Part shown: positions 1,600 to 6,420 of the stretch, in pieces | Numbering within the stretch: the stretch's first letter is position 1 | Layout of the letters: every line of letters begins with the position of its first letter | Assembly: GCF_053078305.1 (NCBI RefSeq) | Contig: NZ_CP166877.1 | Direction: 5' to 3' (one strand) | Length of the DNA stretch: 7,047 nt | Source: a plasmid | Translations under genes and position numbers: made by a program | The notes under the pieces: model-generated | Database searches by the model: none | What the model saw: only the letters and a program-made list of their open reading frames with translations | Told to the model about the DNA's origin: nothing

Positions 1600-1759
1600 C
1601 GGTGAGTTGTTCCGGGAGGTTGCCAGATGGTACCGGAACGCGTTAAAAACGCATCCGGGCGCGATTCTGGCGTGTCGTTTTTGTTGCTGTGTTTTGCCTC
1701 TTTGCCAGATCGCGCTCATTCCTCAGCCTCATCCCGCGATGTCTGCGTATGTCATCAAC

Positions 1760-1939
1760 TGAAAAGATGGAAAAAAAACAGTGTCATGAGGTTTACGCAG
1801 GCAAAACCAGCGTTATTCACATGGCTGAATAGCTATGCATACGGTTAAAATTTATCAGGTGCGATCGCGGCAGCTTTTCGGGTGGTTTGTTGCCATTTTT
1901 ACCTGTCTGCTGCCGTGATCGCGATGAACGCGTTTCAGC
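1760..1939 (+). promoter_or_regulatory. cer accessory sequences (PepA/ArgR-binding region), with a candidate ARG box near 1825-1841
   Basis: Lies immediately upstream of the XerC-side of the cer core, as in ColE1 cer. TGAATAGCTATGCAT at about 1826-1840 resembles the ARG-box consensus (TGAAT-4-ATTCA) and sits about 115 bp upstream of the crossover region. Extent of the accessory region is approximate. Confidence 0.5.
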
Positions 1940-1969
1940 GGTGCGTACAATTAAGGGATTATGGTAAAT
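1940..1969 (+). other. cer-type XerC/XerD recombination core (multimer resolution site)
   Basis: GGTGCGTACAA-TTAAGGGA-TTATGGTAAAT at 1940-1969 matches the ColE1 cer core as I remember it: 11-bp XerC arm, 8-bp central region, 11-bp XerD arm. Confidence 0.85.
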
Positions 1970-1972
1970 CCC

Positions 1973-2395
1973 TTACTGTCTGCCCTCGTATCCATCGAGA
2001 TAAACCGCAGAAATGGTGTCTGCCATTAGTTTCATTTTTTTCGGCGAAGGCATATCGCTGTTTGTGTATTTTCTGCCAGCAAAGGTTGTTGTGCTCCGGA
2101 GTGAGTGAAAAAATTTTTCTGAGTGGAATTCTTTTACACGTTGCTGTGCCGTTTCTGCTGATACTCCGGCTGCTTTGTCTTTCACCCCCATATCCCGGAA
2201 CTGCTGAAAGAACGGGAGCATCATACGTATGGTGTCTGCTTTCTGGGTGTAGAAGTTAGGATCAAATCCATCATCTGAAGCATAAACATAATGCCGGGTA
2301 TGTCGTTCCAGGCTGGTCTTTGGTGTGCATCCTGTAAGAGCTATTGTTGCTGTTATCAGAGGTATCAGAAGCAGCCTGGCAGCGGCAGATCTCAT
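1973..2395 (-). CDS. Putative outer-membrane lipoprotein of unknown function (possibly the Exc1-like ORF of ColE1-type plasmids)
   Basis: ORF 1973..2401 (-). The N-terminus has a signal peptide and lipobox (LLLIPLITATIALTG-C). Residue +2 after the Cys is Thr, not Asp, suggesting outer-membrane sorting. Start is placed at the second ATG (2395) because AAGGAG lies 6 nt upstream of it; the first ATG at 2401 abuts the SD. No catalytic motif recognised. Confidence 0.6.
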   Translation of the reverse strand: MRSAAARLLLIPLITATIALTGCTPKTSLERHTRHYVYASDDGFDPNFYTQKADTIRMMLPFFQQFRDMGVKDKAAGVSAETAQQRVKEFHSEKFFHSLRSTTTFAGRKYTNSDMPSPKKMKLMADTISAVYLDGYEGRQ

Positions 2396-2516: not shown

Positions 2517-2795
2517 GTGAAAAAATGTGTGCCAGTCCTGCTTTTTAGTGTTCTTTCTGCTTCGGTTGCCAGTCATGCGGACAGCAATGTTTTTCAACAA
2601 AAGGCCGAGAAGACAAAAAACGGCATTGTTGCGGATGTTAATGCCAGACAGAAAATGTTCAGTAACAGACTGAAGATACAACTTCAGATCGATGAGTTGA
2701 GAGCAGAGCTGGCTGGCACCAGAGATGCCCAAAAAAGAGAGGATTTGCGTAAAAAACTGGAGTCTCTGGAGCGGCAAAAGAAATCCTTACGCTGA
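2517..2795 (+). CDS. Small exported coiled-coil protein (Sec signal peptide), function unknown
   Basis: 92-aa ORF with GTG start at 2517 and AGGA 8 nt upstream. N-terminus MKKCVPVLLFSVLSASVASHA|DS is a typical signal peptide with an A-x-A-like cleavage site. The mature ~71-aa part is highly charged and heptad-like (LKIQLQIDELRAELAGTRDAQKREDLRKKLESLERQKK). The antisense ORF 2472..2777 looks non-protein-like, which favours this strand. Confidence 0.5.
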   Translation: MKKCVPVLLFSVLSASVASHADSNVFQQKAEKTKNGIVADVNARQKMFSNRLKIQLQIDELRAELAGTRDAQKREDLRKKLESLERQKKSLR

Positions 2796-3104
2796 TGGGG
2801 GCGTATTTTCCCCGGTTTCTTCCATAACCTTTTTACCGTTCAGATATTTACGGGCGAGGCGAATGCGTCTTGCCTGGTATACCGCTGAGTAAGCCTGGGT
2901 GGGATTCACACCATTACTGATTTCACTGACCACATGACGCTGATCAGCCAGTGTCAGCGTGTAAACCTGTTTCTGGATGAGGTCACGGGCTTTGTCATAC
3001 TCATATCCGGCAGCAACAAGGGTGTCGAGAAGTCGTTTGTCTGTTTTGTTCAGTTTATGGCGGGGTGATTTGCTCACATCGTTCTCCGTTTTTTCATGAT
3101 CCAA
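2787..3104 (-). CDS. Small basic protein, possibly DNA-binding (HTH-like), function unknown
   Basis: ORF-track ORF of 105 aa that begins at a TTG (RC of 3102-3104). A more plausible start is the in-frame GTG at 3077 (codon 10), with GGAG 6 nt upstream, giving a 96-aa product. The sequence is Lys/Arg-rich with a helix-turn-helix-like stretch (VVSEISNGVNPTQAYSAVYQARRIRLARKYL). Its 3' end overlaps the convergent 92-aa gene by 9 nt. Confidence 0.45.
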   Translation of the reverse strand: MDHEKTENDVSKSPRHKLNKTDKRLLDTLVAAGYEYDKARDLIQKQVYTLTLADQRHVVSEISNGVNPTQAYSAVYQARRIRLARKYLNGKKVMEETGENTPPSA

Positions 3105-3238: not shown

Positions 3239-3242
3239 TTCA

Positions 3243-3273
3243 CTGTACATAAAACCAGTGGTTATATGTACAG
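3243..3273 (+). promoter_or_regulatory. Tandem LexA (SOS) operators overlapping by 1 bp
   Basis: CTGTACATAAAACCAG (3243-3258) and GTGGTTATATGTACAG (3258-3273), each close to CTGT-N8-ACAG. The double overlapping SOS box is the hallmark of colicin promoters, and the arrangement is near-identical to the colicin E1 operator as I recall it. Confidence 0.85.
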
Positions 3274-3317
3274 TATGCTGTTTTTAATTTATTGTTTTAA
3301 TTATCAAAGAGGAATTT

Positions 3318-4964
3318 ATGGCTAAAGAACTAAGTGGATATGGCCCAACTGCTGGTGAGTCTATGGGGGGAACAGGGGCGAATCTGAATCAGCAAGGTGG
3401 AAATAATAATAGTAATAGTGGGGTTCACTGGGGTGGTGGCTCTGGGCATGGTAATAATGGTGGTCAGGGAAATTCAAATTCATCTGGTTCTACATCAACT
3501 GTGATGAAAACCGGTGAGTCATATCTGACTCCGTGGGGTGATGTTGTCATTAATAATGATGGCCTTCCGGTGATGAATGGTATTGTTATGACAGAAGAGA
3601 ATTCAACTCTGGTTGATAATCCATTTGGAGGGGTCTCCAGAGTTCTTAATTCTTTAATTAGTGATATGCCATCACTTTTTGCAGAAAGCTCAGGAAATAA
3701 CAACAATAACACTGCTTCAGTTAATACTGCACCAACGAATGCTCAGGTCAGTGATATGGATAAGAGTTCGAAGGTGGTGGGTAATGTAATTAATGAAAAA
3801 CAAAAGCAGAAGAATAAAATTGCTACACAGATTAGTGAAAAACAGAAGAAAATAGAGGAGATGAAAAAAGTATTCAAGCATCATTCTTATCATGGTATCA
3901 CTGATCTTGAGAGGGATGTTGATGAGTTGCAAAAAAAATCAAATCAGCTTGATGCAGATATTAGCAAACTTAATTCTTATAAAAATACATTGCAAAGTAA
4001 AATTGGTGATGTGAATAAACAGAAGGAAGCTGAAGAAAAGGCTCGTGAAAATGCAGAGGTCGCTGAACATGAAACTCTTAATGAAGAGAAACAGGCGGTG
4101 GTGGAAGCAGAGAAGCGTTTAGATGAGGCGAAAGCTGAACTGGCGAAGGCTGAAAGTGATGTACAGAGTAAGCAAGCTACTGTTTCCAGAGTTGCAGGAG
4201 AGCTTGAAAACGCTCAGAAGAGTGTTGACGTGAAGGTCACCGGATTTCCGGGATGGCGTGACGTTCAGAAAAAACTACAGCGTCAGCTTGAAGCTAAGCA
4301 GGCTGAGTACTCCGCAGTTGAAAATGAACTTAAGAATGCTGTTAGTTTCAGGGATGGCAAGGCTGCTGAGGTAAAAGAGGCAGAGCAGAAATTAAAAGAA
4401 GCTCAGGATGCTCTTGAAAAGAGCCAGATAAAAGATGCTGTTGATACTATGGTTGGGTTTTATCAATATATAACCGAACAATATGGAGAAAAATACGCAA
4501 AAATTGCTCAGGATTTAGCGGAAAAGTCTAAAGGAAAGAAAATTCAAGGTGTTGATGAAGCTCTGGCAGCATTTGAAAAGTATAAAAATGTACTGGATAA
4601 GAAATTCAGTAAAGTTGATCGGGATGCTATTTTTAATGCGTTAGAGTCTGTTACTTATGATGAGTGGGCAAAGCATCTAGAAAAGATCTCTAAGGCTCTT
4701 AAGGTTACCGGATATTTGTCTTTCGGGAATGATGTATGGGATGGTACCCGGAAGGGATTAGAAACAGGAGACTGGAGGCCTTTATTTGTCACTCTGGAGA
4801 AGAGTGCGGTAGATTTCGGAGTGGCAAAAATTGTGGCATTAATGTTCAGTTTTATTGCTGGTGCTCCTCTTGGTTTCTGGGGGATTGCTATTATCACTGG
4901 TATTGTTTCTTCTTACATAGGGGATGATGAGCTGAACAAACTTAATGAGTTGTTAGGGATTTAA
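3318..4964 (+). CDS. cka: Pore-forming colicin of the E1/K/5/10 family; length and organisation best fit colicin K
   Basis: 548-aa ORF with AAGAGG SD 5 nt upstream. It has the three expected parts: a Gly/Asn/Ser-rich low-complexity N-terminal translocation domain, a long Lys/Glu-rich coiled-coil central region, and a C-terminal channel domain closely resembling the colicin E1 pore domain as I recall it ([59 protein letters not shown], then the hydrophobic hairpin [33 protein letters not shown]). Colicin K is 548 aa; the specific K assignment is from memory. Confidence 0.92.
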
Positions 4965-5454: not shown

Positions 5455-5467
5455 GCTGCCTGTAAAC

Positions 5468-5573
5468 GAAAAAACCCGCCTTGTGGCGGGTTCTTCCGTC
5501 CGATCAGAAGTCTTCGACCTCTTCTAATCGGCGGTGGTAACTGGCTATCGCAGAGCACAGGTACCTAAATTGT
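5468..5573 (-). ncRNA. RNAI antisense copy-number control RNA
   Basis: The reverse complement reads ACAAUUUAGGUACCUGUGCUCUGCGAUAGCCAGUUACC..CCGAUUAGAAGAGGUCGAAGACUUCUGAUCGG..AACCCGCCACAAGGCGGGUUUUUU. This gives three stem-loops and a terminal hairpin plus U-run, homologous in layout to pMB1 RNAI but with different stem and loop sequences. Confidence 0.8.
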
Positions 5574-6249: not shown

Positions 6250-6420
6250 CTCCTTACGCATCTGTGCGGCATTTCACACCCGACATGGCGCATTTTTCAT
6301 ACTATCTACACTGATGCCACATGATTAAGCCAGTATACACTCCGCTATCGCTACGTGACTGGGTCATGGCTGCGCCCCGACACCCGCTAAAACCCGCTGA
6401 CGCGCCCTGACGGGCTTGTC
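6250..6420 (-). other. oriT / bom region with a conserved ColE1-type nick site (minus strand CTGG|CTTA; nick between 6330 and 6329)
   Basis: TAAGCCAGTATACACTCCGCTATCGCTACGTGACTGGGTCATGGCTGCGCCCCGACACCCGC...GACGGGCTTGTCTGCTCCCGGCATCCG is near-identical to the pBR322 bom segment as recalled. The nick position is placed by homology to the ColE1 nic site as I remember it. Confidence 0.6.

Follow-up and report, generated by a model that had tools for sequence, protein, structure and literature searches.

From its sequence, the segment at positions 1760 to 1969 of the DNA analysed here is very probably a cer-type multimer-resolution site with an Rcd-like RNA gene, carried by a ColE1-family colicin K plasmid. 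The original prediction had described a cer-type dimer-resolution site across 1760-1975, and all the sequence-level features of such a site are in place, namely the core, the accessory arm, the ARG box, the orientation and an Rcd-like hairpin gene. The span it gave is also reasonable, since it covers the 30-bp core with ~180 bp of accessory DNA on one side and the stop codon of the neighbouring exc2 gene on the other. Both cer sites and Rcd belong to the textbook knowledge of plasmid stability, and what we describe is already known: an ordinary cer-type site, apparently intact.

The window, meaning the whole 7047-bp stretch that was analysed, is a complete ColE1-type colicin K plasmid linearised at the start of mbeA, with the following landmarks outside the site.

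1-1599: mbeA, mbeB and mbeD
3318-4964: colicin K gene (cka)
strand opposite to the colicin K gene: immunity gene (cki); a lysis gene is also present
5466-5572, minus strand: RNAI (Rfam RF00106, 53.4 bits)
minus strand: rop
running past the window end: mbeC

The nearest record, plasmid pFHI_NMBU_10_02 (NZ_CP046541), is likewise 7047 bp long and 99.3% identical to the window, from which it differs by 49 substitutions that fall in clusters and by no indels. An artificial or erroneous window sequence can be ruled out, given that these 49 differences are clustered, indel free and natural-looking and that the cer variant described below occurs in two other plasmids. Sequences resembling cer have matches in 3807 PLSDB plasmids and in 839 of 5426 complete E. 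coli genomes, where they are nearly always plasmid-borne.

The elements of the site and its immediate neighbour are as follows.

1760-1823, plus strand: distal accessory sequence, 64 bp, 100% identical to pColK-K235 and 45% to ColE1
1824-1841: predicted ARG box (ArgR site) GCTGAATAGCTATGCATA, read as GC-TGAAT-AGCT-ATGCA-TA and aligned with the ColE1 box
1825-1851, plus strand: candidate Pcer promoter, with -35 CTGAAT at 1825-1830, a 15-bp spacer and -10 TAAAAT at 1846-1851
1857-1936, plus strand: predicted Rcd-like small RNA gene, 5' end at ~1857/1858, length ~70-80 nt
1858-1925, plus strand: Rcd-like hairpin, with helix 1 at 1858-1874/1909-1925, helix 2 at 1879-1882/1902-1905 and helix 3 at 1883-1886/1892-1895
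1940-1950, plus strand: XerC-binding arm GGTGCGTACAA, identical to ColE1 cer, with the arm assigned after PMC5357621
1951-1958, plus strand: 8-bp central (crossover) region TTAAGGGA, identical to ColE1 cer
1959-1969, plus strand: XerD-binding arm TTATGGTAAAT, identical to ColE1
1973-2395, minus strand: exc2, an Exc2 family lipoprotein gene (NF033828, E 3.9e-53, 179.5 bits against a cutoff of 35)

The plus-strand 30-mer GGTGCGTACAATTAAGGGATTATGGTAAAT at 1940-1969 agrees with the ColE1 core (NC_001371 3909-3938) at 30 of 30 positions, as the original prediction had stated, and is the same in pColK-K235. It is the single match to this core in the window when up to three mismatches are allowed, and 200 shuffles of the sequence returned none. 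Across 14 cer-like sites the XerD arm is invariant at 10 of its 11 positions, with G1964 present in 12 of the 14. The chromosomal dif site and the psi site of pSC101 have related 11-bp XerC and XerD arms and use the same host recombinases, but their central regions are 6 bp long, whereas the window, like cer, has an 8-bp centre and an ARG box; moreover, dif lacks an accessory arm and depends on FtsK, and psi uses ArcA instead of ArgR (PMC5357621). A dif- or psi-type site is ruled out by the 8-bp central region and the presence of an accessory arm that bears an ARG box.

We aligned the window with ColE1 cer (NC_001371 ~3720-3938), pColK-K235 and eleven more divergent cer-like sites and measured identity segment by segment. 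Relative to ColE1, the core (1940-1969) and the -10 region segment (1842-1857) are 100% identical, 1926-1939 and the hairpin (1858-1925) are each 93% identical, and the ARG box falls to 78% and the distal arm (1760-1823) to only 45%. The 116 bp immediately left of the core (1824-1939) are 91% identical to ColE1 cer overall, so the alignment relates the accessory region to cer. Homology of the flank to ColE1 is thus strong from 1824 rightwards but not in the distal 64 bp. This distal sequence keeps an A-run, GAAAAAA, across the cer-like sites and is presumed, by analogy with the ColE1 model (PMC5357621), to be the region that PepA would wrap. The two sites also share the distance of the ARG box from the core, a homologous hairpin, their orientation to RNAII and an exc2 gene converging on the XerD arm, and they differ in one further detail of the stem, whose 5' arm has one extra G in the window (GCGG, against GCG in ColE1).

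The plausible ARG box of the original prediction, for which no coordinates had been given, can be placed at 1824-1841, where it occupies the same alignment columns as the ColE1 box (GTTGCATAGGTATTCATA, GT-TGCAT-AGGT-ATTCA-TA) and matches it at 14 of 18 positions. Its centre lies ~107 bp upstream of the XerC arm, and T1826, G1827, A1829, T1830, A1835, T1836, C1838 and A1839 are invariant in all 14 cer-like sites. The near-perfect half-site has swapped sides, the pair being TGAAT/ATGCA here and TGCAT/ATTCA in ColE1. By direct count, the window box has four mismatches to the generic 18-bp ARG consensus, as does the experimentally defined ColE1 box. A scan with this consensus at three or fewer mismatches misses the box at 1824-1841, would likewise miss that of ColE1, and has its sole match, a chance one, at 2482, and we therefore describe the box as recognisable by homology and not by consensus.

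The promoter of the Rcd RNA, Pcer, has a sub-optimal 15-bp spacer (PMC5935869), and the failure of a standard sigma-70 scan with 16-18-bp spacers to find a promoter in cer is expected for a promoter of that kind. A hexamer scan returned two candidates with 15-bp spacers that are common to ColE1 and the window. We consider the one at 1825-1851 most likely, by homology, to be Pcer. Its ColE1 homologue in the same scan is TTGCAT-15-TAAAAT, so that the -35 hexamers differ at two of six positions and each matches the consensus at three of six, while the -10 region (1846-1854) is kept in 13-14 of the 14 cer-like sites. Its predicted start, ~1857, is at the foot of the hairpin, and 70 nt further on lies the other foot, at ~1927. 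The second candidate, TGAACG-15-TACAAT, has its -10 inside the XerC arm and was rejected: T1946 and A1947 are kept in only 6 of 14 sites, and its transcript would begin in the core, enter non-homologous DNA and miss the conserved hairpin.

The original prediction had expected an equivalent of the Rcd checkpoint RNA, and this expectation is confirmed at the sequence level. Rcd is a 70-nt RNA with a single stem-loop (PMC5935869, PMC5357621), and the ColE1 region homologous to the window hairpin encodes the experimentally described Rcd (PMC4393325). The plus-strand RNA of 1857-1936 folds as one long hairpin with a minimum free energy of -37.6 kcal/mol (z -4.4), as do its ColE1 and ColK homologues. 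RNAalifold on 13 cer-like sites, down to ~60% identity, recovers the same hairpin, with compensatory changes at 14 of 25 pairs. With the structure fixed, 91% of cells in the 13 sites are paired and none of 500 column shuffles matches any of five measures; sliding the partners by one to three columns as a control lowers pairing to 33-61%. Several positions of the hairpin are mostly G.U, a pairing possible only on the plus strand. A search of the whole window against Rfam at E<=1 found no family over 1760-1975 and only RNAI above its gathering score, and for this reason we made a covariance model, which was built without the window and without ColK-type sequences. The model matches 1853-1938 with 96.8 bits (E ~1e-25) on the plus strand and 11.2 bits on the minus strand. 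Rcd contains a conserved 15-nt stretch (PMC5935869), and the apical sequence GGGTGGTTTGTTGCC...TTTT, nearly invariant across the 14 cer-like sites, fits this published description. Three T-tracts, at 1875-1878, 1886-1888 and 1896-1900, follow one another at intervals of ~10.5-11 bp. The 3' end of the RNA would lie at ~1927 for a length of 70 nt or at 1935, at a UUU run, for ~79 nt; only a weak 4-bp hairpin (1920-1923/1929-1932) followed by this UUU is present there, at 1920-1935.

We also considered a second Rcd-like copy at 1653-1726, which scored 13.1 bits (E 0.03) with the covariance model and whose local alignment was equalled or exceeded in score by 19 of 1000 shuffles. The resemblance to Rcd is not significant and the segment is treated as an independent hairpin. 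On the plus strand it folds at 1657-1717 as a long hairpin (1657-1672/1703-1717, -25.7 kcal/mol, z -2.8), within which a terminator-like stem and T-run occupy 1658-1686, between the mob genes and cer. This hairpin could shield cer from mob and RNAII read-through.

The orientation of cer is constant in ColE1-like plasmids, with rcd and RNAII transcribed in the same direction (PMC2831885). RNAI lies on the minus strand of the window, which places RNAII on the plus strand, so that read-through enters the site from the ARG-box side, and the shared direction of rcd and RNAII (PMC2831885) puts the Rcd gene on the plus strand here. In common with other ColE1-family plasmids, the site thus has its accessory arm turned towards incoming RNAII and replication.

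A mechanism can be outlined if the findings of this analysis, which are the positions and orientation of the elements, their sequence identity and homology and the covariation in the hairpin, are combined with the ColE1 model, from which we take by homology the binding of proteins, the chemistry of recombination, the activity of the promoter, the ends of the RNA and the checkpoint function. XerC would bind 1940-1950 and XerD 1959-1969, ArgR would bind the ARG box at 1824-1841, and PepA would wrap the ~180 bp of accessory DNA on the left. The two directly repeated sites of a plasmid dimer would then interwrap, and XerC would exchange one strand pair in the 8-bp central region, giving a Holliday junction whose resolution by the cell would yield monomers only. 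The weak candidate promoter CTGAAT-15-TAAAAT in the accessory arm would drive a plus-strand hairpin RNA of ~70-80 nt, the Rcd homologue. In ColE1, dimers are the source of Rcd, which holds back cell division via tryptophanase and indole (PMC5357621, PMC4393325).

Within the cer group, the closest reference is the site of pColK-K235 (NC_006881), from the same type of colicin K plasmid and with the same flanks, to which 1760-1969 is identical at 206 of 210 positions (98%). The ColK resolution site is the 'ckr' of Summers et al. 1985. The four substitutions, T1908, T1911, A1924 and G1932, fall within 25 bp, affecting the Rcd-like hairpin in its 3' half and also its tail, and the window differs at these positions from every ColK-type record in PLSDB and the complete RefSeq E. 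coli genomes. Three of the four correspond to the ColE1 state. With T1911 the Rcd-like stem regains an A-U pair where pColK-K235 has A.A, and A1924 breaks the G1859-C1924 pair near the foot of the hairpin. An identical copy of the full-length site was not found in PLSDB or the complete RefSeq E. coli genomes, while the exact 65-bp variant was found in two other natural plasmids. Judged by these comparisons, the window site is a natural ColK allele, and the clustering of its substitutions is more suggestive of a short recombination patch than of random drift. As a separate observation, 6283-6319, between the replication origin region and rop, has 11 substitutions in 37 bp relative to pFHI_NMBU_10_02, which suggests another such patch.

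A comparison of NZ_CP075643 5700-7500, from plasmid pS19_141-c, with window positions 1700-1975 revealed a more complex arrangement. The accessory arm and XerC arm of pS19_141-c are identical to those of the window, including all four variant bases, and the identity extends over alignment columns 1-272 and ends inside the central region. From there pS19_141-c continues with a central region and XerD arm unlike those of the window (TTCAGATG-TTATGTTCAAT). This hybrid site is followed by a ~950-bp RelE/DUF6290 toxin-antitoxin cassette with a hypothetical gene, and then by a second core, GTGGCGTACAA-TAAGGGA-TTATGATAAAT, which has no accessory arm and is followed 3 bp on by the exc2 stop. Since the identity ends in the central region and a cassette and second core intervene, the window looks like the empty, and pS19_141-c the occupied, version of a cer site with a Xer-type cassette insertion. 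The window allele and pS19_141-c are of modest value as an empty/occupied pair.

This arrangement bears directly on the possibility that the site matters mainly as a Xer-dependent exchange or insertion junction, besides or instead of dimer resolution, with cargo modules swapped or inserted at the core and unrelated genes consequently flush with the XerD arm. Homology between plasmids does break at the core: pPCP1 has an accessory arm that is 89% identical and a right flank that is 32% identical, Klebsiella plasmid pC262_5 has a right flank at 84% and an arm at only 70%, pS19_141-c departs from the window in the manner just described, and at four other cer-like loci the convergent ORFs 4-10 bp from the arm show no detectable similarity to Exc2. 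Such mosaics could, however, also arise by homologous recombination within the conserved arm, and selection for resolution and checkpoint, but not use as a junction, explains why the accessory arm is conserved in full together with the ARG box and the Rcd gene. We regard a main role as a junction as rather unlikely, and it would in any case be an addition to dimer resolution and not a replacement for it.

A reading that we consider very improbable treats the inverted repeat at 1858-1925 as a bidirectional terminator, an insulator or a structural element of the DNA that sets the mob genes apart from exc2. The repeat does lie between convergent transcription units, there is no other terminator-like site after the exc2 stop, and the minus strand, too, has a stable fold (-27.7 kcal/mol, z -4.3). 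The U-run, however, does not directly follow the stem on either strand, being 7 nt off on the plus and ~9 nt off on the minus strand, and the frequent G.U pairs, workable only on the plus strand, the large difference in covariance score between the strands, an apical loop conserved far beyond the needs of a terminator and the origin of the described Rcd from the homologous ColE1 region (PMC4393325) all argue for an RNA gene. That the site could be a decaying, non-functional relic of the reference ColK site seems extremely unlikely. Four differences from pColK-K235 in 25 bp, the pair broken by A1924 and the lack of an identical full-length copy in PLSDB or the complete RefSeq E. coli genomes would fit decay, but three of the changes restore the ColE1 state, T1911 repairs a mismatch of K235, and none of the four falls in the core, the ARG box or the -10 region; in addition, the 65-bp variant recurs in two other natural plasmids, with the whole arm in the case of pS19_141-c. 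The preferred reading remains a cer-type multimer-resolution site with an Rcd-like RNA gene.

The convergent lipoprotein gene said by the original prediction to end 3 bp beyond the XerD arm can be identified as exc2, whose stop codon at 1973-1975 (TTA on the plus strand) indeed lies 3 bp past the end of the arm at 1969. The encoded Exc2 is 68% identical to ColE1 Exc2 and has an LTGC lipobox in its N-terminal region; no Pfam family matches it. The mechanically listed ORF begins at ATG 2401, and the start codon is probably ATG 2395, which has AAGGAG 7 nt upstream and agrees with the 140-aa RefSeq Exc2 of pFHI_NMBU_10_02. In ColE1, exc2 (3943-4362, minus strand) ends 4 bp from the XerD arm, and the distance is 3-4 bp in nine of nine ColE1-type exc2 loci sampled (>=66% identity), among them a 108-kb IncF plasmid and a Klebsiella plasmid with a cer arm only 70% identical. 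Because of this, the contact is, from the loci compared, a general and ancestral feature of the module boundary and not specific to the window. Near two distant Exc2 homologues (34-37% identity) there is no Xer core. At the four other cer-like loci mentioned above, the convergent ORFs that end 4-10 bp from the XerD arm have no detectable Exc2 similarity and encode products of 63, 81, 91 and 152 aa, of which those of 81 and 91 aa have related ...TFTWQPxRRR C-termini.

On the minus strand, nothing resembling a terminator was found between the exc2 stop and the Rcd region, and the antisense of the Rcd hairpin, although it folds, has no adjacent U-run; transcripts of exc2 probably run through both Xer arms and contain the full anti-Rcd sequence. 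XerCD has been proposed as a repressor of Pcer, and a published argument holds that XerCD might be dislodged, and Pcer derepressed, by transcription arriving from the XerCD side (PMC2831885). By analogy, the suggestion in the original prediction that exc2 transcription could affect recombination or Rcd is plausible, and it would apply equally to ColE1. The stronger proposal, that convergent exc2 transcription is a built-in modulator of the checkpoint and that the strict 3-4-bp linkage is functional beyond compact packing, strikes us as improbable; it might operate by displacement of XerCD, by collision with Pcer transcription or by titration of Rcd by anti-Rcd RNA. The invariant junction of exc2 and the XerD arm raises the testable question, for ColE1 as much as for the window plasmid, of whether convergent transcription tunes Pcer and Rcd or Xer occupancy.

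We note a perfect 9-bp inverted repeat at 1952-1960 (TAAGGGATT) and 1967-1975 (AATCCCTTA) with a 6-nt loop, which links the central region of cer with the 3-bp spacer and the stop codon of exc2 and on the exc2 mRNA would give a hairpin that includes the stop codon. The repeat has a one-base interruption in ColE1 and is absent at the Klebsiella exc2 locus, and it may be coincidental. Upstream of exc2, the minus strand has a promoter-like sequence at 2459-2487 (ATCACA, 17 bp, TATGAT). Whereas ColE1 has exc1 upstream of exc2, the window plasmid lacks it and has in its place a 92-aa ORF with a signal-peptide-like start (2517-2795, plus strand) and a 105-aa ORF (2787-3104, minus strand), both annotated as hypothetical. 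Directly upstream of the colicin K gene, 3239-3275 contains palindromic CTGTACAT...ATGTACAG elements, which resemble the tandem LexA (SOS) boxes typical of colicin promoters, and two of the 49 differences from pFHI_NMBU_10_02 fall beside these palindromes, at 3277-3278.
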